Source of the DNA: Neocallimastix sp. 'constans'
Taxonomy: Eukaryota
Reading direction: 5' to 3'
DNA length: 64,000 nucleotides
Assembly (NCBI GenBank): GCA_050613775.1
Contig: JBODTK010000102.1
Coordinates: forward strand, 310,001 to 374,000
Numbering within the stretch: position 1 is the first letter of the stretch; every line of letters begins with the position of its first letter. Of this stretch, positions 1,031 to 35,885 are shown piece by piece. The notes beneath the pieces are model-generated. The model was not told where the DNA came from. It saw only the letters and a program-made list of their open reading frames with translations, and ran no database searches. The position numbers were made by a program, and so were the translations under genes.

Positions 1031-1827
1031 TTTAATATCTCCCTTTTTTTAATTGTGTTAAAAATTGTTTTCTTGATGAAAAGATTTTTTTTTGTTCGTT
1101 TGCTAAGTCTTGGAGAATTTTACACTAGTAAATGATGTGATTAAATGTTGACTGATTCTTTGTTTTGTTTTATACTATTAGTTAATCTAATTGGTTGAAA
1201 TACTAATATTTGATTTGTTTAATGATTAATGCTTTTATTTTTTTTTTGTTACATTTAATTAGTTAGGTAATAATTAATTTTTATGTTTTAAATTATTGAT
1301 TTAAATTTTGTTATTCTATTTTTCATTTTTTTATTTATTTATTTAGGAAAAATTAAATTCATCTTTTAATTTATTATTTATTTAATTCTTTTTTTTTTTT
1401 TAAATTCTATTCGTTAAATTATTCGTTTATTCATTTGCTCTTAACACGAATTATATTTACCATTTATATCTTATTATTTATTAAAATTTTAAAAAGATTT
1501 TTGTTTTGTCACTGATTATATTCAGTAGGATGTCCTTTATTTGCTGCTAAATACTTCAGCATAGCACTATTTACTGCATACTCATTTAAGAGTTTTTCTT
1601 TTTTATGTAAATTAAAATAGTAATTATATCTCCTATTTTGAATGTATACATATTTTATTAAATTAGAATAAAATTTCCTTTTTTTTTATTTTTCATTTAT
1701 GAATAATAATATTTTAATACATAAATTAGTAAGTATACAATTAATTATTTATTTAATACTATATATATTTTGATATTTAGTTTTACATGAGTTGAGCTCT
1801 TTATTGGTTTAGTTGAAATTCTTAATC

Positions 1828-2020
1828 TTTTAAATATTAAAATTATAAAAGTACAATTATAAGGTATATGATATTAATAAAGCATTATATTTTTATATGA
1901 AAGTTTATATTAATAATAATTTTTTTACGAATTCTTTTTAATTTTTATATCTTATTTTATTTACGTATAAAATATGATTGGAAAATACTATGTTTGCCAC
2001 ATTAATATTGTAGTTTAACA
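1828..2020 (-). repeat. 5' LTR of element A0 (~193 bp, TG...AA)
   Basis: Starts immediately after the PBS and ends at tttaaca (2020); partner LTR is outside the window, so the outer boundary is inferred. Confidence 0.6.
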
Positions 2021-2025
2021 AATAG

Positions 2026-4338
2026 TTCCTGTACTAATAGAATCAAACTTTGGTTGTAAATCATTATTATTATTATTTTATATGTTGTTCGACTTTTTTA
2101 CAGGATTGTCTTTTTTTAAATTTCTTTATCTGCTTTATCATCATTACTAATTTCATCATTATTTTCATTATTTAATTTTAGATTATTTCTATTATATTCC
2201 TTATCCATTAAATAATCCATATTTTGAAATATTTGGAGTATTTGTAGGTTATATCATTATCTTTATCAAAGATCATAAGAATGTTTTCATATGATTTAGA
2301 GTTATAACTGCAATGATTATAACTTTCACAATTATACAATGAATTATAAGGAATTTCCATTGAACTTTCTTCAATAATATTTACAGATTTAAGATCATCA
2401 GTACTTGTAGAATAATCAAGATGACTATCTCTAAAATTTAATTCATTAAGGATAGTAATTGGTTTGATATTTAAATCAAAATCCGAAGATTTTAAGATTT
2501 CATTAATATCTTGAACTTAATATTTAATGTTACTTTAGTATCATTAAATTTTTACTACATATCTTCTGCATCTCTAATTTTCGTTATTAATTGTTGTTCA
2601 TCATTTATTACCTTTTTTATTCTTTTTTCTTCAGTTTCTTCAATATTTTTTTGTTTCTTTGTTTTATATAAAATCGATAGATTAAATATTTAAATTTTAT
2701 AAGAAAATGTTTTTCAACTATAACTTTTTGTTAGTAAATACTTTCTACAGTATCATTATATGATACCATAGAAATTGCAATGTTACTATTAATTTCATTT
2801 ATTTGAGGATCTTCATAATTCAATAGTATCTTTTATATTTGAATAATTTCTTTTTTATCTTGTCTTAAATAATTAATATTATTAATTAATGAAATTCATT
2901 TTTATTAATGAGGAATATTGTATAATAATAGAATTTTAAATATAACTAATTTGAAAACGAATAATGGCGAACTAGTCAAATCTTCCTTTGTGTTCATTTA
3001 TTCCTCCTTTTACAAAAAGGATTAACCTTCTGTTAAATAATCTAAAATAAATTCTCTTATTTTAATACATATAACCTATATACAACTATATAACAAATTT
3101 AATAGCAGAATTATTATTTACAACCACCTCTTTCTTCTATTTTTTGATTTAATGTTTTTCATGGAATAACTTTTAAATATTTCTCATTTGATGATTACTA
3201 GAATCAAAAATAAATTGCTGCCTTCTAATTATAACTTATATTCCATAATACAATATATATATCATGTTTCTTTCAAAATTTATATTTATTCATCAGTAAA
3301 ATACTTATTTCGATTTATAGTTCATTTTATAGTTATCATTTACTTTAAGAAGACAAGATTTCTTATTTTTCAAGCTAGGACCATATAATAATATATGTGT
3401 TTGTTCTAGGGGCCCTTTCAATAGATGTACTGATTTCTTTTTGCATAAACTTAAAAACTATATATAAAATAATATTTTTAAATACTTTAAGATGCTGAAT
3501 TTTTTATAACTATTATAAATTATAATTTAAATTTATTTCTATTGTAAATTGAATTTAATGCAAATTTTAGTTTTCAAAAGATAATTCTTTAATATTTACT
3601 ATCTCCATTGCAATAACAACAACTTTAATGAAAAATTTTATTTTCAAATAAGCACTTAATATTGACTACTTTTAATTTCATTTTCAATAATTATTGTCGT
3701 GGATCGTGAATTCAAAAAGTTTATTATTTATTAATAATAGATAATAAATAAATATATATTAATTACTTATAAATTTTAAGGTGATATACTATAATTAAAA
3801 TAATTTTAATAAAATAAATATTTGTGACTATATGTTTTCAATTTTATATATGTTATTTAATGAAGCAATTAAGTAGTTTTTATTATATTTATCTTTTCAT
3901 TCTTATATTTAAAAATATTTTTTAAATTTAATATATTTGTTTGGATGAGTTTGAAGTAATGTTAGTTTGTTGTCATTAATGAAAATTTGTCGTTAAAATA
4001 ATTAATTTAATAATAATATTAAAACAATTTAAAGTTAGATAGCTATATATATTTTTATATTTAATTTTATTATATTGAATACTTAAACTTTCACGTTTTT
4101 GCTCAATCTGGTATGACTGAGATTCTTAATCTTTTGAAATAAAAATATTTTTTATTATATAAAAATATAAGAATAGTATATGAAAAATAATAATGTTCAT
4201 TTTTTTGAAATTTATAGTTAATATAATCTGTGACTTATTATTATTATTGTTCATATATTTTACATAAATATATTAAAATATATAGTATTACTCCTTAAAT
4301 TAATATAATTATAAAACTTTATATTTATATTTCTTGCA
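2026..4338 (-). mobile_element. Non-autonomous LTR element (element E, related to D), 5' part, interrupted by A0; internal region is a decayed non-gag/pol ORF
   Basis: PBS at 4118-4131; 4030-4131 and LTR 4132-4338 align with D (29258-29570); minus-strand 2030-3450 gives long stop-interrupted reading stretches (e.g. VQDINEILKSSDFDLNIKPITILNELNFRDSHLDYSTS) with no retroelement motif. Confidence 0.65.
4132..4338 (-). repeat. 5' LTR of element E
   Basis: The 4240-4338 part is similar to the D LTR (attattg.tcatata...actccttaa.ttaatat...taaaacttt.atatttatatt...ca). Confidence 0.65.
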
Positions 4339-6662
4339 TAAAATAAAGTTTTTAATTATTTTCTAATATTAAGTATTATTAATATTAATATATCCGAAAA
4401 AAAGATTAGAAGAAAAAACTTGGAAATGATTTATTTAAATCATATTAAATAAACAATTTTATGAATTAATTAATTTTAAATTTTAACAAATTGTTTAAAT
4501 TAATTAATTAAATAATGGTAAATTTAATAATTCCAAAAAAGAATGTATTTATTTATAGAAAAAAAATATAAATTTGTTAAAGTTCTAATAATCGTTATTT
4601 ATTAATAATTTTGTAAATTTAATTAGTAATATGAATAAATATAAAAATTTCTTATTTCAATTATCTTTAATTAATATAATTTTAATTTTAAAAATATCAG
4701 CAATAAAGTAATGTTTTTTGAATTAATTAATTATATTTTATATAATAAGGTTTCCAATTTACAATTTTATTATTATTTAATTATTATTTATTTATATATA
4801 CATTTTAATAAGTAATTCTATTATTATTAATAATAAAAGAAACTATTACAATTGAACTAATATCAATAACCCATTGTAATTGTACTGATGTTAAATTAAT
4901 CCTATATTGGATTAATTAAAATTATTAAATTTAATAGAAATATTATTAATTAAAAATCAGAATATTGTTAAATAGGTGAATAAATCATAGTAATAAAATA
5001 AAAATCTAGTTAAATTAGTGAATATTTAAATAAATAATATAAAAAAAAATATTTAACTCGATTAAAATATTAATTTAACAAATGTAACGACATTTAAATT
5101 AATTAAGCCTCTGCATTATAATGTTTGAATTTAATTTTAATTTTAATAAACACAAATTTTAGTTAAATAATTAGTATATATAATTTGTTAAGAAAAATTG
5201 TTAAATGTTATTGTTAATTATTTTTATTTTTTATTTTTCACTTTAATTTTATTTTTAATTATTTTTTCTGATTTAGAAAGTTATAGTTGTTCTATTATTA
5301 TTGATACAATTTATTTTAATATAAAATAAACAAAATTCTTTTTAATATCTTAAATTAATATTAAATAATAAAATTCTTAATTTTAATTTTTTAATTTAGA
5401 GTATTTCTAACAACTGAAACATATTGAAATTAAGTTAATTTAGTAATTTCTTACTTAAAATCTTTATTTTCATGTCTAAATATACTAGTCAATAAAAAAT
5501 AAATGTAAATTTAATTTTATTTAAATATTTTAATAAATAATTAAAAATATATAAAACTAATTAGTTATTGATTTATTAATATATTTTTTTTATTAAAAAA
5601 TAATTTTATTAAAAAATCATTATTAAATTTATTAATATTATAATTATTATCTAATTTTTATTATTATTAAGTCGGAATAATTTTTAATACTATTAATTTT
5701 TATTTCTATTTATATTAATTTTTATAATTTTTATAATTAAACTCTATTTACAAAGAATAAACTAAACTATTAATAATATATAATTAAATAACCAATTATT
5801 GCTTATTTTATATTATTTTAACTGAATTATTATTAATTTTGTATTATTTACATATTTAACATTTTTATAATTTAACAATTTTATAATCTAAAAATTAATT
5901 AATTTATTATTATTTAATTATTAATTATTTTTAAATTCAGTTTTTGTAATTATTTATAAATTCTAAATTTCATTCTTTATCATAACCAATGAATAAACGT
6001 TAATAGTATATAAGTATAATATTTGCCTTTCAAGCAAATGGCCAGAATTCAATTTTTGGCTTAACGCATGTTTAATATTGTATAAACTATTACAACTTAA
6101 TTTAAATGTATCAGTGAATATTTTAAAAATAATATTTTACTAATAAAGTTTAAATAATGAAATTAAAATTTTCTTTTAAATTATTAATCAAATTATAATA
6201 ATAAATATAAAAAATATAATTTAAATATAAATTATATAAATTAAATTTTAAATATATCTTAAGTATATTTATTAATATATACATAAATTTAGTAATTATT
6301 AATTATTAAATATTTAATAATTAATAATATATTGATCTTATAATTATACTTTTTATATAAAATATAAATAATAATAATTATTTAAAATCATCTTAATAAT
6401 AAAAATATACTATAATTTATTTTTAAATATAATTTATAATGCCAAACTTCAAATATTTTCAAATTAAACTTTTCAAAATTTTCATTTTCTTTTAAATAAT
6501 TTATTAAAAATAATTAATGATTTTTTTTTACTTTTTATTTTATTATATTTTTTTTTCGGATAACAAAAAATAACTAAGAATTTTGGATTAATTTTTCTCT
6601 TCTTCAATATATAATAAATAAATATAATAATTATAATAATAATAAAATTTAATAATAATAAT

Positions 6663-9600: not shown

Positions 9601-9803
9601 AAACTATCAACCCAAAAACTAAACATGTAGACATTAGGGTTCATTACATAAGAGAAATAGTCAAAGAAAATAAAATCTATCTTAAATATATAAAATCTGA
9701 AAACAATCTTGCTGATGGGTTTACGAAGTATTTAAATGGGACATTAATGGATAAATTTAGAAATTCCTTATTAACAAAAATTGATGATTTATATTTTATT
9801 TGA
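6663..9803 (+). pseudogene. copia pol (GAG-pre-integrase, integrase, RT, RNase H) with one in-frame stop at 8838-8840; element F, 5'-truncated
   Basis: LWHRRFAH, HMDLIGP, RTDNGTEF, QQNGRIER, SRLVAKGFTQ, YVDD, YVDSDYGGD, KTKHVDIR, NLADGFTK; ORFs 6663-8840 and 8850-9803 share a frame; no gag or 5' LTR seen upstream. Confidence 0.93.
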
Positions 9804-9845
9804 AATAATATAAATAAAAAATATGACATTTTAGGAAAGTCATAT

Positions 9846-10053
9846 TTTAGGAGGAATGTTAGAATATAAAAAAAAATAAATACTTAATAATGACTTTAAT
9901 ATATTTTACCCAATCAGAATATTATTATATTTAAATAAAATTATAAAAGAAATAAAATGTAACCTTGTTAAAAATATACACTTTTTTAATTATAAAAAAT
10001 AAAGATAAATAAAATTAAATATTAAGTATTATATATAAAATGCTATTCTAAAA
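9846..10053 (+). repeat. PPT (tttaggaggaa, 9846-9856) and 3' LTR (9857-10053) of element F
   Basis: TGTTAGAATA follows the PPT; the imperfect inverted terminus TATTCTAAAA is at 10044-10053. Confidence 0.65.
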
Positions 10054-10499
10054 ATATATCTAATTTTCTCAATATTTGTTTTTGGTGTTTAATATTATTT
10101 ATTAATATTTTTAAAATATTAAAATTTTTTTTGTTAAAGTTTAAGATTTTATAAAATACAGCGCAAGAATTTTATAATGTATTAAAATGATAAATTAAAT
10201 ATTTAAATATCAGTTTTTAATTTTAATAATAAAATCTAAGTTATTATCCTTTACATCTTTTATATTATTAATATTTTTTTATAGAGATAAAATTATTATT
10301 CATTTTATATATATTTTAAAAAATTATTTAAATATTAAATATTAAAAAAATAATTTTGCAAAGGATTGTTATATAACTATATATTAAAAAATCAGTATAA
10401 AATAAAAAATAATCTCAATTTTATTTAAAATTTATGAAATTAAATATATTTAATAAGATTGAATAATTGAAAATTAATTAAAAATATTTAACAAATTGG

Positions 10500-10665
10500 A
10501 AGGACTAAAAATAGTTATTAGTGAAATTTATGTATGAAAAGAGCAAATAATTATTAATAAAAAAATTTAAATATAATTATTTATATATTAAAAAGAATAA
10601 ATCAAAGTTATATAGATGTACCGAATATAAAACTTTAAGTAAAAGTAAATTTTATATTATTTTAT
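10500..10665 (+). pseudogene. MULE transposase N-terminal relic
   Basis: Translates with a frameshift to KEQIIINKK...SKLYRCTEYKTLSKSKFYIIL, matching the N-terminus of the 41057-42481 transposase. Confidence 0.7.
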
Positions 10666-11668: not shown

Positions 11669-14600
11669 TGTTAGAGACGAAATCGTTACATACATTTATT
11701 TATATTATTAATTTATATCAATAAATAATTAATCTCTAAGTAAATTAAATAATATTAACTTAGATATAAAAATATGAAATAAATTTAATGTAAAATATCA
11801 CTAAGAAAAAATATATATATCCTTATAACAAAAATTATTAATAAACATTTTATAATATTACTCATAACATAAAATACTTTGTTTCATTGTTTTTATTAAT
11901 ACAGTGTTTGTCTTAGATTTATAAATTTGTTTTTCACAGATTAGGAGTCTCAACTCTTCAGTTGAGATATCAATAAAGCTAAGTTGGAATAAATAAAACA
12001 TAAAATCAATTTATCATTAATATCCAAACTAATAAAAATCAACAAAGTCTATTAATATAGAATTAATCTGTTGGACCTTAGATTCAGGAGCTTCAATCAA
12101 CATCACCAACAGACTAGATAAACTCACAAATATTAAATATTGTAATGAAAAAATATTTTTTGTAAACAATCAATCGATTATCATCAATAAAGTTGGCACC
12201 TTCATAGGATACATTAATGAATACGAATTCACAATTGAAGATGTTTATTACTCACCATTAATCAATATAAATTTAATATCAATTGGAAACTTAATTAAAC
12301 AAAATTATAAAATTTTATTTAACACCAATCACAACAAATCATATGTCACGATCTATGACAAATACCAAAACAAAATCGCCAATATTATTTCAAATGCAAA
12401 TAACACATTCAACATTTGGTTATCAACCCAACGTATATTTCTACACGACAATAATACCAGAAGCACAAATGATGAAATCAATTATATTAACATGAAGATT
12501 CCTGATTAATTAAATTTATGGCATAGAAGGTTTAGTCACTTCGATACAAAATCAATTAAAAACAAATTACTTAAGACAGATATCAAATTAAAATGTCCTC
12601 TATGTGCTCAATCCAAGATTAAAAACAAACCTTATTCAAAAAATATTAATACAACTAAGCACATCTTTGAACTACTACACTAATAACACTTCTACTCAAA
12701 ATACAACTAATAGCACAAGTCAACGCAAAGTTACCAGCACTAATAAAAATAGCAACATCAATAATAATCAAAATAACACTATTAAAACTACTCAAAGCAA
12801 TGATAATAATATCAACACTAATCAAACAAAAAACAACAACAATCATTCAAATTCGAACGTTCATTCTGAAACAAACGATATGAATATCAACAGTATTATA
12901 AGCAACCAAAACAATAAAGTTAAAGGAAACCAAACACCTAACAATAATAATACTTTAATATGCAACAATCAAGTGTTAAATAAAAATTTAAGAGAATCTT
13001 TAGACTATGACGATTTATACAACCTCGAAGATCAAGAAGAATTGTTTAACTCTGCTGAAAATGAATTTGGCAACTTGAGAGACCTAAAAGTTTATGAACA
13101 AGTAAATAAAGATGAAATTCCAGAAGAAGCTAAAATATCAAATCCAGACTAATATTCAAATACAAAAGAAATTCTAAAGGGGACATAGTCAAAAGAAAAA
13201 CAAGGCTTGTAGCAAAAGGGTTCACACAGCAACATGGAATAGACTATAAAGATACATTTGCACCCACCTTAAAACTAGATTCGATAAGAATATTTACACA
13301 TATAGCAGCAAGAAATAATTTCCAAATAGAACAAATAGATGTTAATGCTGCTTATTTAAACGCCCATCAAAAGGAAGAAATATACATGGAGCCTCCAAAG
13401 GGACATCCCGATCACAAGAAATACATCTGGAAACTCAAGAAAGCCATGGAATGGAACAATGAATTAAATGGGCATCTACTAAACATTGGTTTCAAAAGAT
13501 TGACTTGTGAACCATGCAAATATTTTACAATAGATAAACATAACAAGATTACATGCCTCATAGCTGTTTATGTGGACGATATACTACTTGCAGATAACAA
13601 AGCAAAAGTAGATCAAATCAAAAATATGATAAAAAATAGATTCAAAATAAAAGAAATTGGTGAAGTCAATTTCATAATAGGAATAAAATTTGTATAGTAT
13701 AAACACGGTTACTTCTTAAATCAAGAAAGATATATAAACGATATAATTACCAAATATGAATTGTCAAGTGCTACTCCTATTCGTAATATAACACCAATTG
13801 AAAATGAAGAATTAAGAAAAATGAAAATGAATGAAACTACTTATAGAAGCGCTGTTGGAAGCTAATAATACTTAGGTATCTGTACTAGACCCGATATTAT
13901 ATGCAGTATCCAAAGCGGCACAAAAATCAAAAGAACCTAACTTGGAATATTGGGAAAATTTAAAACGAATATTAAAATATTTAAAGGGAACAATAAAATA
14001 TGGTATTAACATATCAAGAAACTCCAATGTCAAAGCTTTCGTAGATGCAGACTACGCTGGGGACACAAAAACAAGAAGATCGACTACAGTATTCGTAATT
14101 ACTATAGGAGATTCCCCTACTAGTTGGTGTTCAAAACTACAGCATTGTGTATCGACTTCCACGGCTGAGGCCGAATACTATAGTCTTAGCGAATGTAGCA
14201 AACATTGCATGTGGTACATAAACTTATTGAAGGAATTAAAATCCAACATTAGTGGTATTGAAGTCAACATAGACAATAAAGCTGCAATCTATAATGCAAA
14301 AAACCAATCGATTAATCCAAGAACAAAACATATGGACATAAGATTTCACTATGTAAGAGAATTAGTAAAGAACAATAAAATAATATTATAATATTTAAAA
14401 TCTCAAAACAATTTAGCAGAAGACTTTACGAAGTATCTAAACGGATCTTAGGGGTTAGGGTTATTAACACAGCCAATGGACTTGAAAATTTATTAACTTA
14501 AATTTTTTAAAATAAAAAAAAAAATCAATTATAACCTTAAAAAATAAGTTATAATTGTGAGTGAAAGTTAGAGACGAAATCGTTACATACATTTATTTAT

Positions 14601-14836
14601 ATTATTAATTTATATCAACCAATAATTAATCTCTAAGTAAATTAAATAATATTAACTACGATATAAAAATATGAAATAAATTTAATATAAAAATATCTTG
14701 TAGAAAAAATATATATCTCCTTAAAATAAAAATTATTAATAAACATTTTATAATATTACTCATAATATAAAATACTTTGTTATATTGTTTTTATTAATAC
14801 AGTGTTTGTTTTAGATTTATAAATTTGTTTTTCGCA
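11669..14836 (+). mobile_element. Internally deleted Ty1/copia element (element G), TSD ATATC
   Basis: LTRs at 11669-11938 and 14566-14836; ATATC at 11664-11668 and 14837-14841; PBS at 11939-11952; protease WTLDSGAS near 12071; gag and integrase core missing; RT/RNase H broken (YVDD, FVDADYAGD). Confidence 0.92.
12060..14450 (+). pseudogene. copia protease-RT-RNase H pseudogene of element G
   Basis: ORF fragments at 13386-13697 and 13942-14391 plus motifs between them; several stops and frameshifts. Confidence 0.9.
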
Positions 14837-15189
14837 ATATCATTTATTTGTTACAAAATTCAATTTTTACATTAAGTTCATATCAATATCTTATTTATTT
14901 TATTTTATCATATTAAATATTATTATTTCACTGCTTACTTATTTATTTTAGTTTAATTCTATTAATACTTGCAATTTATTGTAATTCACATATTTATTTT
15001 ATTTTATATGTACTTGTATTTTTATTATAATTGAAACATTTTATTTAAGTTTATTTTATTTTTGTTTATACTTGTATTTTTATTATAATTCAAATATTTA
15101 TTTTATCTTACTTTATTTACTTGTATCTCTATAATATTATATTCTATATTTTATTATTATTTATTAATATTCCCACTCTTCATTAAGAC

Positions 15190-17892: not shown

Positions 17893-18111
17893 TTTTAGAA
17901 AATGATTATCTCTTCTTTTATTATGTTTTTAACAAAGTTACAGTTGGAGGAAATTATCTTTAAAAAATATTTTTTTATAATTATGTTAATATATATAAAT
18001 TACACAAGAATATATTATTGGTCATATACTTTATATATATAAATTAAAATTATACTACAAAACTCCTTAATTTAATATGAATATAAAACTTTAATATTTA
18101 TATTTTTAAAA
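17893..18111 (-). repeat. 3' LTR of element D
   Basis: Direct repeat of 29355-29570, adjacent to the PPT. Confidence 0.92.
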
Positions 18112-19375
18112 TTCCTCCTCAAGTCTAACTTTGAAACAAGTTAGAATTGAATCGATTTTATGTTGTTATTCGGATATATTTGATATTTAATATTTTGGAT
18201 GTTAAATCATTAATTGCTTTATGGGTGCCATTTTTATATGATGTGCTATTATTAACTCTCAAATTAATTCAGGTTACTGATATTCACTATATTCCTGATT
18301 TTTGTCCATTTAATGACATTACATAAATATTTTTATGTTTACTTGGTAAAGGTAGCTGATACCAGAATTTCATGAAAGGAAATTTTATTTTAGTAATTGA
18401 ATATTATATGTTGCTCCTTATAAGATATATATAATTTGTCGAAATTTTATATTCCCTTTTTATTTTCTTTAAACATTAATTGTGGTTTTACTAATTAATA
18501 TAGATAATGTGGAATTTAACGCTTTTCTAAATGTAGAAATATTCTAGAAGTGAAATATATCTAGAATACATATTATAAATAATTTATTTATAATATTCTT
18601 GCTTATTAAGATTTTGTTTAACTCTTTGGCCAATAGCTATTAATTCATTTCATGTTAGGTATTGTTTCATTTTATTTTAATTATTTTTTATTAAAATATA
18701 AAATATTAAATTTATACTTGAAAGGGATTTCAATTAATCTTCTTTTAATGAATCTATAATTATATGATATCGAATTATATTTGTTGGGATTCTTTTAAAT
18801 TTATTTTGCCAACAGAATCAAAATCACTTTCGTTTTCAGTAGAATTGGCATTGAAAATTAAATTTAATTTATTTTTGATGTTTGAATTATGATAATTAAG
18901 ATAATTATTAAAAATATCTCAGAGATTAATTTGCATGTGGAAATTAGTAAAATTGTATATCGAATATTTGAATTCTTCTTGTATGGATTATTATGTTAAT
19001 TGAAGGTAATTGAGTTATGACTAATACATTTATTTATTGATTACTGTCAAAAATATTATGTTAAGAAACACTCAAATAAGTTATAATAAACACAATAATA
19101 AATATATATGGATTAGTAGTTTTTAGAAAAATATTTTTTTATAACAGTATAAATTATTTTTATTCTCTTTTGTATAAGATATTATTTTTTATAAAATAAT
19201 AATTCCATGATTTTTATACTTTTTATTTTAAATATTAATACAAGTAATTGGTCATTATTTATATTAAAGATAGATTAATTAAATTAATCATTATTTTGAC
19301 ATTCCCCCAAAAATCTAGCTTCAAAAAAAAAACTTTTTAAAAGATAAAAAAAAATGAAGATAGATTTTAATATAA

Positions 19376-22300
19376 TTAATTAATTATTTTCGTTAATAAG
19401 GTATTTCTAAATTTGTCCATTAAAGAGTTATTTAAGTATTTTGTAAAACCATCAGCAAGGTTGTCCTTTGATTTTATGTATTTTAATTTTATAATTTTCT
19501 TATTTACTAAATCCCTAATATGATGATACCTAATATCAATGTGTTTTGATTTCGGATTTATTGATTGATTTTCACTATTATATATTGTTGCTTTATTGTC
19601 TACGAAAATTGTTATTTCTTTGATATTTATGTTTAATTCGTTTAGTAAATTTTTGTACCATAATGAATGTTTTGCGCATTCACTTAAGCTATAATATTCA
19701 GCTTCTGTAGTTGAGGTGGAGACACAGTGCTGTAATTTGGAATACCAACTTGTTGGAGTGTCCCCCATTAACATGAGAAATCCAGAAGTTGATTTTCTTG
19801 TATTCGGATCGCCAGCAAAATCGGTATCTACAAATATTTTTAATTTCATTCCCTTTTCTATTTTGATTCCATAATTTTTTGTATATTTGAGATATCTAAA
19901 AATTTTTAAAACATTCATCCAATCTTCTAAGTTGGGATCTGTTGATTTTCTTGAAGCTCTGCTAACAGCAAAAAGAATATCAGGACGGGTACAGATAGCT
20001 AAATATAGTAAACTTCCTATTGCACTTCGGTATTTTGTTTCATTGAATTTCTTGGTTCTTAGATTTGGATTTACTAATGGCATAAGATTTTTTACTGGTA
20101 TTAAGTTGTTAATATCGAATTTATTTAAAATGTCATTTATATATCTACCTTGATGTAAAATGTAGCCATTTAAAGTTTTGGTAAATTTTATTCCAATTAC
20201 AAATTCAACATCCCCAATATCCTTTATATTGAACTTCCTTTGAATAGATTGTTTTACTTTATTTATTTCTTGATTTGTTCCTGCAATGAGAATGTCATCA
20301 ACGTATACTGAGAGAATACAAACTATTTCCTTCCCATTGTTTAATTTAATATAAACACATGGCTCACTTTTTATTCTATTGAAACCTATTTTTATCAATT
20401 CTTCATTGAGTTTATCATTCCATTCTTTACCAGCTTGTTTTAAGCCGTAAAGAGCTTTGTGAAGTTCCCAAAAAGATTTTCCGTAAGATGGATGACCCTC
20501 TGGTGCTTTCATGTATATATGCTCATTTAATGGTGCATTTAAATAAGCTGAATTGATGTCTATTTGAACAATATTGAAATTTTTCTGAACCGCGATAACT
20601 GTAATGATTCGAACTGTATCCTGTTTTAGTGTTGGTGCAAATGTTTCTTTGTAGTCGATACCGTACTGTTGAGTGTATCCTTTTGCAACTAATCTTGCCT
20701 TTCTTTTAATAACATTTCCGTTTGCATCTCTTTTATACTTAAATACCCATCGTGATGATATTACGTTGGATCCTGATGGTACTGTTTTAACAATTTTATA
20801 AACATCAAGATTTTTCATAATTTCTAATTCTTTCTTGATTGCGTTTAGCCATTCTATTTTATCTTTAAATTTGAATATATCCTTGAAGTTATATGGTTCA
20901 ATTAATGTATTTTCATTAATTTTCATGTCTGATTCATCTGTGTTGTTTTTTTTTTCTTTTATTTGAATTAATTGTAAAATTGTTTAAATTCCTTTTTGAA
21001 TTTTTAGGATGTTGATAGTTTTGATTTTTCTCTTTATTTGTGTTATATTTATTATTAATGTTGTTAATTTCTTGTTGGTTTTCTGTTGATATTTTGTTGT
21101 TATCATTTTCAGTCGTATTTTTAATTTCATTATTAATATTGATTGAATTATTATTGAAATTGTGATCATTTGAATTTAACAATTCCTGATTGAAAGTGTT
21201 GTTACTATTATTGATTGAATTATTGTCAATAGTATTGTTGTTATTTTCATTATTATTATTTTGATTACTGTTATTAATGATAATTTTTTTATTATTATTT
21301 TGATAATTGGGATAATATTTACGACTAATTCTATTTGTTTTAGAGGATTTATTTTTGGATTGATTTTTAATATTTTTATTCTGGTTAATATTTCTATTCT
21401 GGTTAAAATTTGTTGTAGCATTTCTTTCATTGATAATATCTGTTATTTTATTATTATAATCATCAATTTCATTACGGTATCTAAGTCGGTTTAGACAGTT
21501 GCTCTCAATGAATTTGTTATTGGAATGAATACGATTTAAAAAGGAATTTCCTGGTTCATTTTCCATAAATTCTACAGTGCGAGATTGGATGATTTTATTA
21601 TTGATAACATCAAGAATTTTGTAAGTGGAAGGATGATCGCCATATCCAAGAAAAATACCAGGATGTGAATTATTGTCAAATTTTGATCTTAGTTCCTTTG
21701 GCACAAAGAAATAGACTCTACATCCGAATACTCTAAATGTATTGTAATCTACAGGCTTATTATAAAATACTTCAAATGGAATTTTGTTTTGAATGCCTTG
21801 ATGGGGAAGTCGATTATGAATATAGTTTGCAGTATCAACAGCAAACTCCCAAAAATCATGACTGAGTTTAGCGTCGTTAAGAAGTGATTTTGAAGAAGCA
21901 ATGAGTATACCATTAAATCTTTCAGCCCTTCCATTTTGAGAAGGGTTATAAGGAACTGAAAACTGATGATGAATTCCATTTTCTTCACAGAAAATTTGAA
22001 ATTTACTATTTTGAAATTCCTTCCCATTATCAGATCGAATTGCTTTGATATTTATATTTAATGAATTATAAATTTTATTATACCAAATGATAAATTTGTT
22101 AAATACATCATTTTTATTTTCAGTGAAGATGACCCATCCATATCTAGAGTAGTCATCTAAAATTGTAAGGAAATACTTATTGTTATTTATTGAAGGATTA
22201 ACAGGTCCTACAAGATCTAGATGTATTAATTCTAAAATTTGTTTAGTCTTATTGGTAGATGGTTTAAATGACTTATTTTTTAATTTGGAATTAATACATA

Positions 22301-23971
22301 CTGGGCATTTTAATTTTAGATTGATATTACTTAATTTATTTTTTATTTTAGAAATATCATAATGACCTAGGCGTCTATGCCAAAGGTCAATTACTTGTTG
22401 GTTATTTGATACTGTATAATTGATTTCGTTATGTTTTGTTGAATTTAAATTTGTTTGGTGTTTGGAAGTGAAAATTTGATATGTATTTTTATCATTAGAT
22501 AAAGATTTATAAATTCTATTTCCATTATTATCATAAATTAATGCTTGTGGGGAGTTGTCATAATTATTGAATATTACTTTATAATTTTGAGAAATTAATT
22601 GATTGATTGAAATTAAGTTTCTCTTAATATATCGTGAATAATAGACATTTTTTAAAATGAATTTGTTGTTGTTAATGAATCCTACAAAATCGCCACAAAA
22701 TTCAGATAATACTTCTTTACCATTCGCTAGTAAAATTTTTGTTTTACATTTTTTAATGTTAGTAAGAAATTTTATGTCATTAATAGTACTGATTGATGCA
22801 CCTGAATCTAAAATCCAAACTATGAAGTTATTATTATATATATTACAATTTTCGTGATTTTTATTTTTATTCTTTCTAAACAATTAATTTCGATTGCATT
22901 GTCAGAGTTATAATCTTTAGAAAAATCTTCTAAGTAGTCGTCTTTATAGTTGTTGTAATTGCTTATTGAATATAAATGCTTGTTATTAATTTTACTTTTA
23001 TTATATTTTTTGTTCAATTTTCTTCGAATTTTCATTGATTTATTTTCATTGTTTTGATTCAAGAGCTTATTTCTTTTATACTTATAACATTCCTTTTTGT
23101 AGTGGCCGTATTTTCCACATAAGAAACATTTTCCATTTTTTCTTCTTCTTATTTTTAAATGCTTATTATTTTGTTTATTTTTGTTTTCAGTTTGTAAATT
23201 AAAAATATTTTTTGCGTTTTCTTCTTGAAGTTTTCTTTCCTTGATGTTCGAGAAAAGAATATCTGGTATTATTCTTTTTACGTAATTGCAACATTTTATC
23301 CATTCATTATTGTACTGGAAAACATTTATCCACCTTAGATTTTCAGGTAAGGCTCTATTCAGAATCCCTACCTTTACACTATCACTCATGTCTGTATCGA
23401 TGATTTCCAATTCATCGATCATATTTTGAAGTGTTGCAAGGAAGATATGTATGTCATCATCTGTGGTAAATTTCAATCTGTTTAATTTATTTCGTAATAG
23501 CATTTTTTGATGCTCTTCTCCTAAAGTAAAGGAATCTTGAAGGAAGTTCCACATTTCGAAGGCGGTCTTACTATGGCTTTTTATTATTTCTTTCGTTTTC
23601 TTCCCCAGGCTATTATTAATTATCCATTTGACCATGATGTCATTCTTGATATCTGTTTGGGTTGTCCCAATATCGTAAACAAGAGAATTATTAAATTTAT
23701 CTTTAATGTACTTATCTAAATCTTCTTTAATATCCTTCTTTCTAAATTTTTTTACTTTTGGTAAACTAACGTATTCATCTAGATTATTGATGATTAAGAG
23801 GTCCAATACGTTAGTTTTCCAATCTTTAAAGTTTTCAACCGTTAATTCGGTAACATGATTGAAATTCTCGGAGTAATTGAAAGAGATTCCTTTAGCGAAG
23901 AAATTACTTTCTGATTCGGGAATTTCGATGATTTGGTTTCTGGAGTTACTTCTTGAATTGTTTCTGCTCAT
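19376..23971 (-). CDS. copia gag-pol of element B, split into 3 ORFs by two compensating 1-nt frameshifts (~22875 and the A-run at ~20945-20955)
   Basis: gag with zinc knuckle CFLCGKYGHYKKEC; WILDSGAS; RSDNGKEF; ARLVAKGYTQ; YVDD; NLADGFTK; gag and RT ORFs share a frame. Confidence 0.9.
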
Positions 23972-24593
23972 TTTCTATTTTTTATTTTTACCTTCTTATT
24001 TTAATTAAAAGTATTTATGTTTTATTATTTTCTTAATTTATTTTTTATTGCTTTTCTTTAATTTGTCTTTTATATATTTTTTATTTCTTTAGTTAGATTT
24101 TATTTTATTAAATTAAATAATGTAAATTGTAATTAATTTTGATTGGTTCTATTTTTAGTGACAATTTATTATTAATCTATTTATATAGATTTTTTAATGA
24201 TTAATATTTAAAAAATTTAATTTAAAGATATTAATATACATTTTTTTTTAATATTGATGGAGGAATCAGTATAATTTTATTATTATTGAAACCTATCATT
24301 TTGATTCTTTTATTAAATAATGTGAATGTGATTATGTTACTATTCCTTTTTTAATTAAGAATAAATTATTTTTATTAATGTTTATTATAAAGTATTGTAT
24401 ATATTTATATTACGAACAATAGTATAAAGAGATTAATTTATTTATATTAAGTGTATTTAAAAATTTTTGTTATTGTTGTGAAAATGATTATATCATTAAT
24501 TGTTCATATTTAATATATTATTATAATTTCATTTTAATTAAAATCTTTATTTTAATTATTTATTATATAATTGAATTTTTTATTATATTTTTC

Positions 24594-24815
24594 CCAGCTT
24601 ATATAGCATAGCTGACATGTCATGTTCTTTTATTCTCAGCTTATATAGCATAGCTGACATGTTATGTTCTTTTATCCTCAGCTTATATAGTATAACTGAC
24701 ATGTTATATTCTTTTATTCTCAGCTTATATAATATAGCTGATTTTTTGTTTCATTCTCAGCTTATATTCAATAGCTGATCTTTTATTTCATCCTCAGCTT
24801 ATGTCTAATAGCTGA
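24594..24815. repeat. Six tandem hairpin units (42/37-bp period) in the 5' leader of B
   Basis: TCAGCTTAT-N-ATAGCTGA units with CAGCTT at 24595, 24637, 24679, 24721, 24758, 24795. Confidence 0.9.
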
Positions 24816-25051
24816 CCTTTTGTTTATTTTCAAATTCAATTATATTGATATTGGACTTCTTTGTACAATTATTTTAAATATTAAAGATTCCACTTTTATT
24901 TTAGTTTTATAATTTATAAATATATATATATATATATAAATAATTAAAAATTAATATTTAATAATAAATATATAAATTTCAAATTTATTTAATGTTAAAT
25001 TTTTATTTTAAAAAAAATACTTAGCTTTTATATGGATTAATCGGTTGAGAT

Positions 25052-25065
25052 TGAGACTCTTAATC
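25052..25065 (-). other. Primer-binding site of B, complementary to the tRNA-Lys(CUU) anticodon arm
   Basis: The + strand reads TGAGACTCTTAATC and abuts the LTR. Confidence 0.85.
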
Positions 25066-25336
25066 TGTCAAAAATATTATGTTAAGAAACACTCAAATAT
25101 CTCAAATAAGTTATAATAAACACAATAATAAATATATATGGATTAGTAATTTTTAGAAAAATATTTTTTTATAACAGTATAAATTATTTTTATTCTCTTT
25201 TGTATAAGATATTATTTTTTATAAAATAATAATTCCATGATTTTTATACTTTTTATTTTAAATATTAATACAAGTAATTGGTCATTATTTATATTAAAGA
25301 TAAATTAATTAAATTAATCATTATTTTGACAATTAC

Positions 25337-27720
25337 ACAAAGCTTATGGTTTAGTTTTCAGTTTTGATTGATATTTTATTTTAATTGCGAAATCAATAAT
25401 AAATTTGAATAGTCATTAAATATATTAACGTTATATTCAGGGTGTTCAATGATATTACTTATTTGAAATTATTATACTTTGACGATAATTATTCCCCCTG
25501 ATTTCGTAATTAGAATAAAAGTTATAGAATCGATTTATTTTTGGTAATAAAATTTGAAATAGAGAGATATTTATGTTTAAATATTTCCGCTCTAATATGG
25601 GTTGATGTTCAAAATAGGAAATATATAAAATTTTTAATGTATTAATTTTGTTCCTAATATAACTTAAAATATGGAAATGATAACAAATGATAATGATGAT
25701 ATGTCCCGTTTTTATAGGTGGGAAATTGAAATAAGATTATTTTAATAAAATTTAATTGGTTTATTTTAATAGATATCCAGTAACTATTTTAATGTTAATA
25801 GTGCATTCATTTTTCAAAATTTCTTGAACCATTTTCGATTGTTGATTTTAATAATGATCACACTTTTGATTTATTAATATGATGGATTGTATTTTCAACA
25901 TAATCTCAGAATTTATACGATTTATTAAAGAAATATAATTAATATTAAAATCATTTTCTTTTATATCTAAAGTTATATTATGATCAGTAGCATAATCTAA
26001 TTATTTATGTTTAAAACAAAATTGTCATTTTGTAACCTTCTATTATAGGGGTATCATTTATATTTAAATTGATATTAGTTTGATTGGAATAATTCATTGG
26101 TTACTTTATAATTTATTTTTATTTTGATGTTTTACATAACAATACAAAGGGAAATGACCATGTTTTTATTTATATAGAATTGTTTATCATATATAATTGA
26201 TAAATTTGCCATTTCAATATTATTTATTTTACAAGCGGTTAGATCATGATATTGTTCATAAATGTTTGCATCGTTGATATTAGATATTTTATATATCTTT
26301 ATTAAATGTATTGTTAATAAATGATTTAAAAATATCGGAATATCCTTTTTGAATTGATAAATGTATTATTGAATTTTTCTTCATTATCTTTATTATTTAA
26401 ATTTATATGGTATATTTGAGTGAGATTGTAGTATTTCAAATAATTTTATTGACTTAACTTGCAGATTGTTGGAAATATATTATAACAATAATATTTTAAG
26501 AAATTTAATATATTTTCTTTTTAATGAAATATTAATTTTTTTTTTATCTAATAAAACAAAATCCAATTCATCAGCGTCTGTTTTGAAATTGATGGAATAA
26601 TTTATTAATATTTCAATTCTTTCAACATTATCTATTTCTATTAATTGTTTGACTAAGGAATTTTCTTTATATTTTTATTTATATACTATAATAATATTCT
26701 TTTTCTATGGCGATTGAAGTTTAAAGTGCATTACAAAAATATCATCTCTTTTATTAAAATCTAGTAAGTAATCATAGTAATGACTTATCGGTTCTATTAA
26801 AATTATTTAAATTTTCTATTCATTGTCTTTTATATGATATAAGAATGGTAATTCATTTTCTCTGATTTGATTTTTTTTTTTTTTTTTTTATTTTTTATCT
26901 ATTCTATACGGTAACGTAATAATAAATATTATAGGTTAAATATTGGAAAATTATCGAGAGACCTATACTATTACAAATATTATAATGCGTTTTCTATACT
27001 TAAATATAAATTATTATCATATTCAAATTACAATATTAGTTTAAATATAATAATAAATATACTATAAAAAATATTAGTTTTTGTGAGTTTAGATCGTGAT
27101 ATTTCAACAATAATTGATTCTTTAGTTTTAAAGGTTTCTTGATTTATGATTGCAATTTCTATGATATTGTGTTCATAATGCTAATATAATATTAATTATA
27201 AATATATATTGTAATTTATAATTTAATAAAAATCGTTATTCTAGTACTACTGTTCAGTTTGTGAATTACTTTATAAATTGGAAAATTTGAAGGTTAAAAA
27301 TAGGTATTGTTAATATATTTTGCAATAAATTTTTGTTTTCGTCTTTGTATAAATCGATTTATGCTTTAATTTCAGAAAACATCTCCATTGTTTTATTTTA
27401 GTTATGATTTTATAAACCTATTTCTTTATTAATAGTTTCTAGTATATCTAACTTTTATTTGTATTTTTTAATATTTATTGTATTCATAATATAGGAGGCA
27501 TTATGATTGAAGGAGAAACTTTAGAGTCGGCTTCAATATTCTCAACAAATTTATTTATTTTTCATGAAATATATTTGTTGATATATTTACTTCGATCGGT
27601 AGATTAAGAATTTTCTAGTTCAACTATTATTTTCATCTTAAAAAATTTATTTTATCAGCTATTTGAATTTATGTTTTTTATAAATTAGATCAATTTTTTT
27701 TTTTAATTTCATTAATCATT
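25337..27720 (-). pseudogene. Decayed ankyrin-repeat protein gene, cargo of element D (probably continues at 19044-18130 beyond B)
   Basis: Fragments LNNKDNEEK/IIHLSIQKGYSDIFKSFIN (~26400-26310), ACKINNIEMANL (~26236-26200), KHGHFPLYC (~26165-26140), NDTPII (~26058-26041), LDYATDHNITLDIKENDFN (~26000-25944); many stops and frameshifts; outer limits approximate. Confidence 0.65.
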
Positions 27721-27996
27721 TTTACTCTATTGTCCAAATTACATTGAAAGTTATTTTTTTAAATTCTATTTATTAATTTTGATTTTAAGTTACTTTCTTA
27801 CAATGAGTTAAAAATATAATACTAAAAATATAATTTTGTATTATATTTTTAGTTTTTAATTTTATTATACTTAAAATTATTTAATATTTCATTAATATTT
27901 GATGTAATTTTATTAGTATTATTATTGTTGTTAATATTATTAATATAATTTTTATTTTCTAATATATCTTTAATTTTTATTTTTGGACTTTACTTT

Positions 27997-28037
<41 letters not shown>

Positions 28038-28527
28038 TTATATATAAAATTCCATTTTTGAACCCATTTTCTATAATATTGAAATATATTGAAAATTGAA
28101 TGTATGTCACGCGATTGTTATATTGAAACTATAAAAATTCTCAGCTCTTTGCAATGACACTATTATCATATTTGTATTAATTTCTGTTAAATACATTAAT
28201 GAATTTATATCTAATAATATCTTTTATGAATATGGAATTAAAATTTATAAAAGATACACTTTATTAATATAAAATAGGAACTTTTATTATATGAGAAAAA
28301 AAAATATATTTTTGTTTAGTTCGCGTATTCATACTATTTCTATCATAGTATTTTGTTAAAGGTTTATCAGACAAAATGAAAGATAAAAATAATGAATCGT
28401 CCACCGGATTGGGAGCGGTTTTAGGAAAATATTAAGATGTTCAGAAATATGCTGTGTATTATTATTTTTATGAGTAGTTGAATTAAATTTTATTTAAATT
28501 TTTAGAAAAGAAAATACGATAGATTTT

Positions 28528-28730
28528 AGCTTCCTGTTGACTATTTTCAATTAAGCTTTTATCAAGCTTTTAACCATTTTCAACTAGCCTTTTATTAAGC
28601 TGTTGACTATTTTCAACTAGCCTTTTATTAAGCTGTTGACTATTTTCAACTAGCCTTTTATTAAGCTGTTGACTATTTTCAACTAGCCTTTTATTAAGCT
28701 GTTGACTATTTTCAACTAGCCTTTTATTAA
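28528..28730. repeat. 33-bp tandem hairpin repeats in the 5' leader of D
   Basis: ttattaagctgttgactattttcaactagcctt x4 plus 2 degenerate units; GTTGA/TCAAC inverted stem. Confidence 0.92.
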
Positions 28731-28968
28731 TAATATATATATATATTCTTATTATATTTATGCATTTATAATAATTCAAACACTCAAAATATATAAATTG
28801 TTTTTTATTTTTTATTTATATATATAATTATCTTATTTTATTCATTTATATACATTATTATCATTACTAGTAATTTCATTACATCATCGGCTGACAATAA
28901 TATTTTCAACTCGATATCTTTAATTATTTTTATTTTCTTTTTGTTTTATTATTATATTGGCTGACGAT

Positions 28969-29001
<33 letters not shown>

Positions 29002-29340
29002 CAGCTTAATCTGTACATTATTTTATACCTGCTGACTATTTGTTTTCAGCTCGATATAATACAATATTAATAAATTGTTAATGTTTTATACAATATAAAT
29101 TATACTTATCTTTTTAACGCTTATATAAATCACCCATCGTTAGTTTAATATATTTAGTTGTATAGATTTTTGAATTTTGAATGTATGATTTGATTAGTAG
29201 TTATTTCAAAAAAAATGTGATTAAATATTTAATTATAACGTAATATAAAATGATTTAAAGTTAGATAGAGAGTTATATATTTTTATTAATTTATTTTATA
29301 AAATACTTAACTTTCATGTCTTTGCTCAATCTGGTAAGAT

Positions 29341-29354
29341 TGAGACTCTTAATC
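29341..29354 (-). other. Primer-binding site of D (tRNA-Lys(CUU) anticodon arm)
   Basis: TGAGACTCTTAATC preceded by the D-arm-like GCTCAATCTGGTA. Confidence 0.85.
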
Positions 29355-29570
29355 TTTTATAAAATGATTATCTCTTCTTTTATTATATTTTTAACAAAGT
29401 TACAGTTCGAGGAAATTATCTTTAAAAAATATTTTATTATTATGTTAATATATATAAATTACACAAGAATATATTATTGGTCATATACTTTATATATATA
29501 AATTAAAATTATACTACAAAACTCCTTAATTTAATATGAATATAAAACTTTAATATTTATATTTTTAACA
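29355..29570 (-). repeat. 5' LTR of element D
   Basis: Direct repeat of 17893-18111, adjacent to the PBS. Confidence 0.92.
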
Positions 29571-29834
29571 ATATTTTTTAGACACATTAATGTTTATAAT
29601 AGTTTAATTTATTTATATTATAGATATTTTATTATTTATTAATATATTTTTTTAAAAATAGAACTAAAGAAAAACATATTCATTTAGAAAGCTTTTATAC
29701 ATGAATATTATTTATTAAACTAATTGATTGGTTAATATAAAATGAAGTATAGTAAATATATTTTAACACTCCTCCTCAAATGTAACTTCGTTTCAATGTT
29801 ACATTTGTTTAATTTTAACTATATTTTTTTAGAA

Positions 29835-32800: not shown

Positions 32801-34648
32801 TTAAAAACAAAGTCCATCCATAGCGTGAATAGTCATCGAGGATTGTAAAAAGATATTTGTTACCATAAAGTGATTCAGGAAGAGGACCAACCAAGTCCAT
32901 GTGAAGTAATTCAAATATATGTTTCGACTTATTTATTGCTTGCTTATATGGTTTATTTTTAAGTTTTGAATTCATACAAATTGGGCATTGATTAACTGGT
33001 GTATTAAGTTTTAATAATTTGTTTTTAATATGGCTAATATCAAAATGACATAATCTTCTATGCCATAAATTTAATCTCTTTGCTGCATTTGATGTAGTGA
33101 AATTTATTTCTAAATTATTATGTTGATTGTTATTATTATTGAGATTTATTTTATTATTGGTAAACCAAATTTTAAATGTATTAGTCTTGGTTGCAGTGAT
33201 GTTAACTATTCTTTTATCATTGCTATCGTAAATGATTGCATATGATTTATTATTTGAATTATTAAAAACAATTTTATAATTTTCTTTTAGTAATTTGCAT
33301 ATGGATATTAAATTTTTATTGATGGCTGGAGAGTAGTATACCTCATTAAGTATTACTTCATTGTTGTTTACATACCCCTTAAATTTTCCTTTATGGACAG
33401 CTGTAATTATTTGTCCATTAGCTAGATTAATTTCTTCATTACATTTTTTATGTCTATTAGAAGATTAAGATTGCTTGTGATATTGATTGAAGCACCGGAG
33501 TCCAAAATCCAACATGAAAGAAAGTTTTTGTCACTATCTTCATTTAAAAATTCTTTTTCAACGTTACAGTAATTTAATTCAATATTATTTTCTGTATTAT
33601 AATCTTTAGTAAAGGCATCTGTGTATATTGTGTCATAATTACTTGAAGAGGCATCATTAGTGTTCACATAATTAATATCGTTTTGAAATTTTCTTTTGTT
33701 TTTAGTTCTTTTATTAAATTTATTTTTGTTTTGATTTTTATATAAATTATTTTTTCTGAATTTACATTCATAGAAGTAATGTCCTCTTCTTCCACAATAG
33801 TTACATCTTCCACTATTCCTTTTAAGGCTTTTTCTTTTACCTTTAGTTCTATTATTGTTTCGATAATTCTTGCTCTTTCTTGTTTCAGCATTGAAGAGAA
33901 CATTATTGTTGTTTTCCTGAATGGAATTTTTTTCTTTTAAATTAGATAAAACGATATTAGGGATGATTTCCTTAACATAATAGCAGCATGATTCCCAACT
34001 CTTATGTTGAAAGACGTTTATCCACCTTAGATCTTCAGGTAAGCATCTATTTAGAATGCCGATTTTTGTATTTATACTAAGGTCATTGTCAATTTTCTCA
34101 AGTTCGTCTATTAAATTTTGCAAATTGGCAATGAATATATTTATATCGGTCTTGGTGTCAAACTTCATTGTTTCAATTTTGTTTTGGATTTCGATTTTTC
34201 TTCTTTCCTTGCTTTTGGTAAACGATTCTTGGAAGATGTTCCAAATTTGGAAAGCGGTCTTTTCATTTCCATTTATTAGTTTTTGTGTTTGTTCTCCAAG
34301 CCCATTTATGATAATCCATTTGGCCGTGATGTCGTTAGTTATATCAATGTTTTTAGTGTTCTTTTCATAAACTAACGAACTATCAAATTGATCCTCCGGG
34401 TAATCTGTTAATTCTTCTATTATATCTCTTTTTCTTAACTTCTTTACAATTGGATGAAGGACATATTTGGTTAATTTATTTATTCTTAGCAAATACAGAA
34501 TTTTTCTTCTCCAACCAGGGTAGTTTTCTGTATATAGTTCAGTAATTTGGTTGAAATTTTCGGAATAATTAAAGGTTATTCCGTTATGTGTAATATCTTC
34601 TCCGGTGAGGTTGATAACTTGTTCTTGGTTTCTTCTTCTTCCGGCCAT
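29835..34648 (-). CDS. copia gag-pol of element C with a single 1-nt frameshift in an A-run at ~33445
   Basis: CNYCGRRGHYFYEC, WILDSGAS, then the pol frame is open from ~33441 (CNEEINLANGQ...LWHRRLCH) through integrase, RT (YVDD) and RNase H to 29835. Confidence 0.92.
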
Positions 34649-35167
34649 TTCGAGTACTTTTGAAGTCTTAAATTTTTATTATTATTTTAAATTAATTATA
34701 ACTATTTTTTAATATCTCAATTAATAAAAATATTTTAGTAGTTTTTTTTTTTTTTTTTTTAAAAATATTATAATATTTAATTCTGTTAATTTTTATTAAT
34801 TTATTAGTATTAATTTGTTATATTAAAAATTCTCATTTTAATTTTTACTTAAATTTGATTTCATTAATTTGTTACTATTTTTATCTCATTTAGTATTGTA
34901 ATACCAAACTTTAATAAATAAGGCATTTATATTATTTAATTTATTATTAATTTTGATTAAATAAAAAGTGATTATCATTTGATTAGATTTTTTATTTTTT
35001 ATTCATTGATTAGTTTTATAATTTCATTTTAATATATTTGATATATTATATAATGTGATTTATTCAAAATTTTATTTAATACATATAATTAGTTTTTTTA
35101 TTATTATTTTAATTTATTTATATTTTTTTTTATATTAATAATATTTTAGTTTCAAATTTATCTAAAT

Positions 35168-35397
35168 ACCATCAGTTGACTATTTATTTCTCATCTTGAT
35201 GATACTGTGTTTATTTTATTTTTAATATTAATATCATCAGTTGACAATAAATTTTTCATCTTGATGATATCATTTTTATTTTATTTTAATATTAATATCA
35301 TCAGTTGACAATAAATTTTTCATCTTGATGATATCATTTTTATTTTATTTTAATATTAATATCATCAGTTGACAATAAATTTTTCATCTTGATGATA
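35168..35397. repeat. Four tandem hairpin units (64-65-bp period) in the 5' leader of C
   Basis: ATCATCAGTTGAC-N-TTCATCTTGATGAT with CATCAGTTGAC at 35170, 35235, 35299, 35363. Confidence 0.92.
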
Positions 35398-35885
35398 TTA
35401 ATTTTATTATTTAACAATTTAACTATAATTTTATTTATTGTTGATTAAAAAATATCTTTATTTCTTATGGATTTGATTCGGTAATAAATAAAATACAATA
35501 AATAATAAAAATAATAATTTATTAGTTCTTTGGTTTTATTGAAAGGTAAAAATAGAAAAATTTAATTTATATTATAACTTAACTTTATTTTAAATCAAAC
35601 TCAATTAGTAGATTGAGACTCTTAATCTTTTAGACACATTAATGTTTATAATAGTTTAATTTATTTATATTATAGATATTTTATTATTTATTAATATATT
35701 TTTTTAAAAATAGAACTAAAGAAAAACATATTCATTTAGAAAGCTTTTATACATGAATATTATTTATTAAACTAATTGATTGGTTAATATAAAATGAAGT
35801 ATAGTAAATATATTTTAACAATATTTAAATATAAAATTTTAAAAAAAGTAATAATTTAATATTTTACTATCTATTAAAATAAACT

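Follow-up and report, generated by a model that had tools for sequence, protein, structure and literature searches.

In the stretch of Neocallimastix sp. 'constans' DNA analyzed here (contig JBODTK010000102.1, positions 310,001 to 374,000; 64,000 nucleotides, referred to as the window), six long terminal repeat (LTR) retroelements, E1 to E6, carry a primer-binding site (PBS) complementary to the anticodon arm of tRNA-Lys(CUU). Together with related elements outside the window, they very probably belong to one gut-fungal copia clade that primes reverse transcription from the 5' half of tRNA-Lys(CUU), cut after nucleotide (nt) 40. The site, its position next to the LTR, its register on the tRNA-Lys(CUU) of other eukaryotes and its conservation across the clade are all observed. 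The host is, judged from sequence, an anaerobic gut fungus of the Neocallimastigomycota: the window has a GC content of 18%, the named matches of its glycosyltransferase gene (61 listed) are all from Neocallimastix, Piromyces or Anaeromyces, and the best named matches of its copia proteins are Orpsp1 gene models.

The six sites are listed here by window position, with their agreement to the 14-nt tRNA complement.
1814..1827, minus strand: PBS of E1, two mismatches, one a would-be G-U wobble and one opposite tRNA nt 32
4118..4131, minus strand: PBS of E2, one mismatch, opposite tRNA nt 32
11939..11952, plus strand: PBS of E3, one change, a would-be G-U wobble opposite U35
25052..25065, minus strand: PBS of E4, exact
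29341..29354, minus strand: PBS of E5, exact
35614..35627, minus strand: PBS of E6, exact

An earlier sequence-only reading had placed a shared motif at these six positions, directly abutting the 5' LTR, equivalent to nt 27-40 of tRNA-Lys(CUU) and never starting with TGG, and all of these points were upheld. Three of the six sites are exact, two have one mismatch and one has two, a total of six at up to two mismatches that compares with an expectation of 0.30 ± 0.58 and was reached in none of 100 shuffles. The first base after the 5' LTR is the start of the motif in E3 to E6, where the LTR is fixed by its 3' partner and a target-site duplication (TSD), and also in E1 and E2, on an LTR inferred from its TG...AA ends. 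None of the six has TGG within its first 8 nt. The motif is the exact complement (0 mismatches) of nt 27-40 in tRNA-Lys(CTT) genes of other organisms, as annotated by ARAGORN and Rfam, and 12 other tRNAs in the fetched loci have at least 3 mismatches to the site. Because these tRNA-Lys(CTT) genes were retrieved through the motif and come from other organisms than the host, they give the identity and register of the match and not its host specificity. The column opposite tRNA nt 26 is A or G in all 14 sites considered below and is unable to pair, and pairing stops at nt 27.

In the classical Hemivirus genus the half primer is initiator tRNA-Met, and the tRNA-Met genes at hand have 5 and 7 mismatches to the site, against none for tRNA-Lys(CTT). 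The gut-fungal elements work like hemivirus-type, half-tRNA-primed elements, with a PBS that abuts the 5' LTR and an anticodon-arm complement ending at nt 40 instead of a match to the CCA end; they are members of Ty1/copia and are not classical hemiviruses. Their register on the tRNA is the same as in hemiviruses, which start reverse transcription at nt 40 of the anticodon stem-loop, from its 3'-OH (PMC1181622). Drosophila copia, 1731, Ty5 and Osser likewise have a PBS at the LTR, an anticodon-arm complement and a predicted primer end at nt 40, but they use initiator tRNA-Met (PMC1181622, PMC10275265), and for copia and Ty5 priming has been shown by experiment, whereas here it is proposed from sequence. 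Among plant elements, Bianca uses half tRNA-Ile and Osser, Bryco and Gymco-II use half tRNA-Met (Neumann et al. 2019, PMC6317226); these lineages likewise represent a lineage-wide half-tRNA primer switch inferred from sequence, with other tRNAs and in other hosts, and half tRNA-Lys is absent from the accessible text of that survey and its five searchable supplements.

The site extends beyond the window. A motif scan of metagenomes returned 22 loci (loci outside the window carry L numbers), comprising 13 complete tRNA-Lys(CTT) genes, one cut-off gene, six AT-rich PBS-like sites and two loci that are neither. Copia gag or pol lies downstream in the right direction at four of the six AT-rich sites, and the contigs of the other two, at 1.4-1.5 kb, gave no coding match. 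A search with protein sequences, which made no use of the motif, yielded 79 loci. Five of these are close to the gut-fungal elements (L094, L095, L096, L118 and L153), and the exact motif is present in both that include an LTR/PBS junction (L095 and L118); in L094, and in L096 and L153 of the sister gut-fungal subgroup, the contig does not reach the PBS. More distant copia elements of the same 79-locus set have half tRNA-Met (half-Met) or full-Met sites. The eight sites outside the window, all in AT-rich contigs, bring the total to 14, across which the core columns are conserved in 12-14 sites. All placeable Lys-site elements group in a single clade, both in the tree of reverse transcriptase-RNase H (RT-RH) sequences (E3, E4, E6 and L095; 19 rows, Shimodaira-Hasegawa-like approximate likelihood ratio test [SH-aLRT] support 100) and in the integrase tree (E4, E6, L082, L092 and L118; 18 rows, SH-aLRT 99), and this clade is sister to a second gut-fungal subgroup. 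Several rows in these trees have a biased amino acid makeup and the deep branches are weakly supported; rows left out were L079 (RT tree), L079, L091 and L123 (integrase tree) and seven short rows (wider tree). In two other DNA runs, contigs accumulate on the PBS of E5 and then diverge into other LTR ends, with a depth in run X2 of 3494 at the PBS compared with ~145 in the leader. The collection of viral contigs contained no relative of gag or RT, the 71 loci from a motif scan of these contigs were all tRNA references or chance matches, and an Atlas search gave generic RVT_2 clusters only.

The 79 eukaryotic copia loci (L094-L172) are all filed in prokaryote genome records, a contamination of that collection. 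Rumen methanogen bins contain the gut-fungal elements L094-L096, and one long 'chromosome' record contains many half-Met copia elements (L128 and others).

The elements that carry the six window sites differ in completeness. LTR pairs of E3 to E6 were defined by self-comparison and alignment, and coding domains by Pfam and tblastn; the 5' LTRs of E1 and E2 are inferred from their TG...AA ends alone, with no partner LTR inside the window.
3..961, minus strand: broken copia gag/protease remnant of E1 (tblastn), running off the window
1828..2020, minus strand: 5' LTR of E1, inferred, TG...AA, partner outside the window
4132..4488, minus strand: 5' LTR of E2, inferred, TG...AA, related to the LTR/leader of E5, no coding sequence after it
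11669..14836, plus strand: E3, an internally deleted copia element with protease and RT/RNase H remnants
11669-11938 and 14566-14836, plus strand: LTRs of E3, 93% alike, TG...CA
11664-11668/14837-14841: TSD of E3
19045..25331, minus strand: E4, a copia element of full length inserted within E5, its gag-pol spread over three overlapping frames
25066-25331 and 19045-19301, minus strand: LTRs of E4, TG...CA
25332-25336/19040-19044: TSD of E4
17893..29570, minus strand: E5, an LTR element without detectable copia coding sequence, carrying the E4 insertion
29355-29570 and 17893-18111, minus strand: LTRs of E5, 96% alike, TG...AA
29576..35820, minus strand: E6, the youngest copia element
35628-35820 and 29576-29768, minus strand: LTRs of E6, no mismatch, TG...AA
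33422-34675, minus strand: gag frame of E6
29835-33464, minus strand: pol frame of E6 (protease, integrase, SH3, RT/RH), its reading frame broken in the protease region

E3, E4, E5 and E6 each have a matching LTR pair and a 5-bp TSD, and in each a purine tract precedes the 3' LTR. Both E4 and E6 contain the Pfam domains Retrotran_gag_2, Pol_BBD, rve, SH3_retrovirus and RVT_2 and have the copia order, LTRs, 5-bp TSD and polypurine tract (PPT) of Ty1/copia elements, features that the remnants E1 and E3 retain in part. E6 is considered young because its LTRs show no mismatch. Neither Pfam nor tblastn gave a copia coding match in E2, an LTR-plus-PBS stub, or in the internal region belonging to E5 itself, and the name copia therefore rests, for these two, on the PBS and on likeness of the PPT and LTR. 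As E5 combines young LTRs, a PBS and a PPT with an interior of ~5 kb that gave no copia coding match (25332-29340 and 18112-19039), it is probably a non-autonomous derivative; a 33-bp tandem repeat lies within it at 28501-28763. The sequence-only reading had described six copia elements with different LTRs. Six sites there are, but the LTR/leader regions of E2 and E5 are related (72% over 365 columns), so that the six are not fully independent families, and copia coding sequence is kept by E1, E3, E4 and E6 but not by the other two.

Candida Tca2 is reported to be primed by a tRNA-Arg fragment with pairing that extends beyond the anticodon arm. It differs from the elements described here in its yeast host, its tRNA-Arg and its gag-pol readthrough, whereas L094, a relative of E3, has a single 1500-amino-acid frame.

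The ends of the LTRs vary. Among 14 elements, the LTR 3' end is AA in six, CA in five and TA in three, with A invariant at the last position and two positions before it; the non-canonical ends are at 1828, 4132, 29355 and 35628 of the window and in L078, L091 and L092. Such variation matters for end recognition by integrase and for LTR finders that require TG...CA. E6 and E5 lie head to tail and have one 5-bp TSD in common, at 35821-35825, 29571-29575 and 17888-17892, as if the second element had inserted exactly at the target site of the first.

When these sites are placed into the context of reverse transcription, a simple sequence of events can be proposed. Host tRNA-Lys(CUU) would pair with the PBS through nt 27-40 and would be cleaved after nt 40 (40/41), before or after packaging, and RT would then extend the new 3'-OH into U5 to give minus-strand strong-stop DNA. 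The bases after the core are predicted to fold back onto the PBS as a short hairpin, and the D-arm and the GG of the D-loop of the tRNA are predicted to pair with the same box and loop, such that primer binding could open the hairpin and add stability. Priming from half tRNA-Lys(CUU) is the best reading of the core, because the register ends exactly at nt 40, the site is conserved across the clade, no TGG is present and the LTR offers no adequate self-complement.

Two further boxes, given here for E5, follow the core.
29325..29332, minus strand: second box, predicted to pair with tRNA-Lys nt 11-17 or with the end of its own PBS in an 8-bp hairpin
29306..29313, minus strand: third conserved box, ~38-45 nt from the LTR in E2 to E6, L080 and L095 (7 sites)

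Equivalents of the second box follow the PBS of E2, E3 and E6, and a weaker one that of E4; the third box pairs with tRNA nt 6-12 in the model of E4 only. The sequence-only reading had proposed a bipartite PBS that includes the D-arm, and this holds in part. Pairing of tRNA nt 1-26 with the 36 nt after the core is stronger than in shuffles (p<0.05) at 9 of the 14 sites with either of two tRNAs, while the 3' part of the tRNA, used as a control, exceeds shuffles at 0/14 (tRNA of L087) and 1/14 (tRNA of L073). The same box, however, also folds onto its own PBS, and a hairpin covering the PBS is stronger than in shuffles at 10/14 Lys sites, compared with 0/12 half-Met outgroup sites (a 13th, L114, was dropped as too short). 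As CUCA occurs in both the D-stem and the anticodon stem of tRNA-Lys, the D-arm and hairpin tests are not independent.

It is quite conceivable, if not the reading that we prefer, that the core primes through half tRNA-Lys and that the 'D-arm' box is solely an intramolecular hairpin, acting as a packaging, dimerisation or translation signal, its likeness to the D-arm being a by-product of the repeated CUCA. The excess of hairpins over the half-Met controls speaks for this, as does an RNAalifold consensus of seven related sites, in which two of seven pairs show a compensatory double change that keeps the hairpin and weakens D-arm pairing; Ty5 genetics are also reported to assign only a minor role to tRNA residues beyond the anticodon arm. 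Yet both compensatory changes come from one element, E3, and in E4 the D-loop pairing is strong (p 0.003-0.010) and the hairpin is not significant (p 0.257). Moreover, the hairpin loops of E2, E5 and L080 contain ACC, the complement of the D-loop GGU, for which a hairpin alone would have no need. E3 thus favours the hairpin, and E4 and the ACC loops favour D-loop pairing. Co-folding with a non-host tRNA predicts that the tRNA half beats the hairpin at 14/14 sites, by 10-28 kcal/mol, and in such models the region after the core is likely to be a two-state leader. The predicted hairpin/D-arm switch gives a way to test how these elements capture an internal segment of a tRNA.

The sequence-only reading knew of no described case with this tRNA, and here it was mistaken. 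A tRNA-Lys PBS, ATTAAGAGTCT, has been published for the FunCo1 clade of fungal Copia elements (Donnart et al. 2017, PMC5445492), and it is found exactly in 3/6 window sites and 8/8 outside sites, with one or two changes in the other three. FunCo1 occurs almost only in Pezizomycotina, plus two copies in Lipomyces (PMC5445492), whereas the elements described here are in Neocallimastigomycota, and no gut fungus is named in six searched supplements of that paper. The site is there called 'classical', and the paper is silent on half-tRNA priming, on the 14-nt register and on a second box. The mechanism and the tRNA-Lys site are thus already known, and because FunCo1 is restricted to Pezizomycotina in PMC5445492, the new part is the host lineage, an early-diverging fungal phylum. 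This extension from filamentous ascomycetes implies either that FunCo1-like elements are far older or wider than described or that the switch to tRNA-Lys took place more than once. We found no publication on this PBS in gut fungi, although Navaratna et al. (2024), on gut-fungal LTR elements, may cover it, and passages of PMC2194720, PMC13728883, PMC6238403 and PMC1635307 contain nothing on it. For annotation, software that searches for a match to the CCA end would report these elements as lacking a PBS, and the correct primer is needed for any transposon tool built for anaerobic gut fungi.

In sequence sets that contained no FunCo1 reference, no named Pezizomycotina protein occurs among the 120 + 120 listed matches, nor among 20 rows chosen from the wider tree, of which only three clusters carry an organism name; deep branches of the tree are weak. 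We consider it unlikely that the clade is unrelated to FunCo1 and switched independently to half tRNA-Lys(CUU), with a PBS shut by a hairpin that only the 5' tRNA half opens. It could be speculated, with the same doubt, that in such an independent switch a D-loop toehold and strand displacement by the D-arm would form an RNA switch gated by the primer and selective for the cut tRNA.

An improbable alternative is priming by a different tRNA whose arm is similar, such as tRNA-Lys(UUU) or, for E3, tRNA-Arg(CCU), or a fragment with another 3' end. The E3 site alone spells a CCU anticodon, and the G opposite U34 could wobble with Lys(UUU); CUU, however, is spelled by 13/14 sites, the change in E3 is a tolerated G-U wobble, and two Lys(TTT) genes and one Arg(TCT) gene, none from the host, have 3, 4 and 6 mismatches. 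An accidental tRNA match, with Tf1-type self-priming or a primer-independent hairpin like the CHS of fungal GalEa elements in its place, is very improbable: the PBS does lie within a predicted hairpin at most sites, and a conserved hairpin does replace the PBS in GalEa copia (PMC5445492), but hairpin geometry varies among subclades while the 14-nt tRNA complement is fixed, and the longest perfect PBS complement in an element's own 5' LTR is 5-7 nt, compared with 11 nt in Tf1 (PMC7175516). The element's own 5' LTR is thus no better match than the tRNA. With no TGG and only this short LTR complement, where Tf1-type self-priming pairs the PBS with the first ~11 nt of the transcript, neither that mode nor priming from the CCA end of a full-length tRNA fits, and both readings were rejected.

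Several observations weigh against half-tRNA-Lys priming or narrow its basis. The cleaved primer and its strong-stop complementary DNA are predictions from the sequence of the sites. The D-arm extension fails in 5/14 sites and is confounded with the hairpin, and the old elements E1 and E2 both have A opposite C32. Because the motif was used to retrieve six of the eight outside sites, the core conservation of these six is circular. An unbroken gag-pol frame is present in none of the window elements, and RNA runs gave, on the leader and LTR of E5, one read and two contigs less than 90% alike, which is no evidence of silence. ARAGORN found no tRNA within the window, tRNA-Lys(CUU) included. L087 (19% GC), the sole AT-rich tRNA-Lys contig, was considered as a source of the host tRNA and rejected, as its flanks are open under the ciliate code.

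Other features of the window are as follows.
5997-6068: tRNA-like but degenerate sequence (Rfam RF00005 at 31.4 bits, barely above threshold), missed by ARAGORN and probably a pseudogene or a chance match
6618-10150: E0, a seventh copia remnant with integrase-RT-RH, a PPT and the start of a 3' LTR near 9857; it has no 5' LTR or PBS and is placed in the same clade as the Lys-site elements
37284-38736 and 41057-42508: a pair of MULE transposase remnants, related to each other (75% alike) and oppositely oriented
45650-45920: E3-family solo LTR, flanked by a TSD of its own
59338-61110: open frame of 590 amino acids, with no Pfam match

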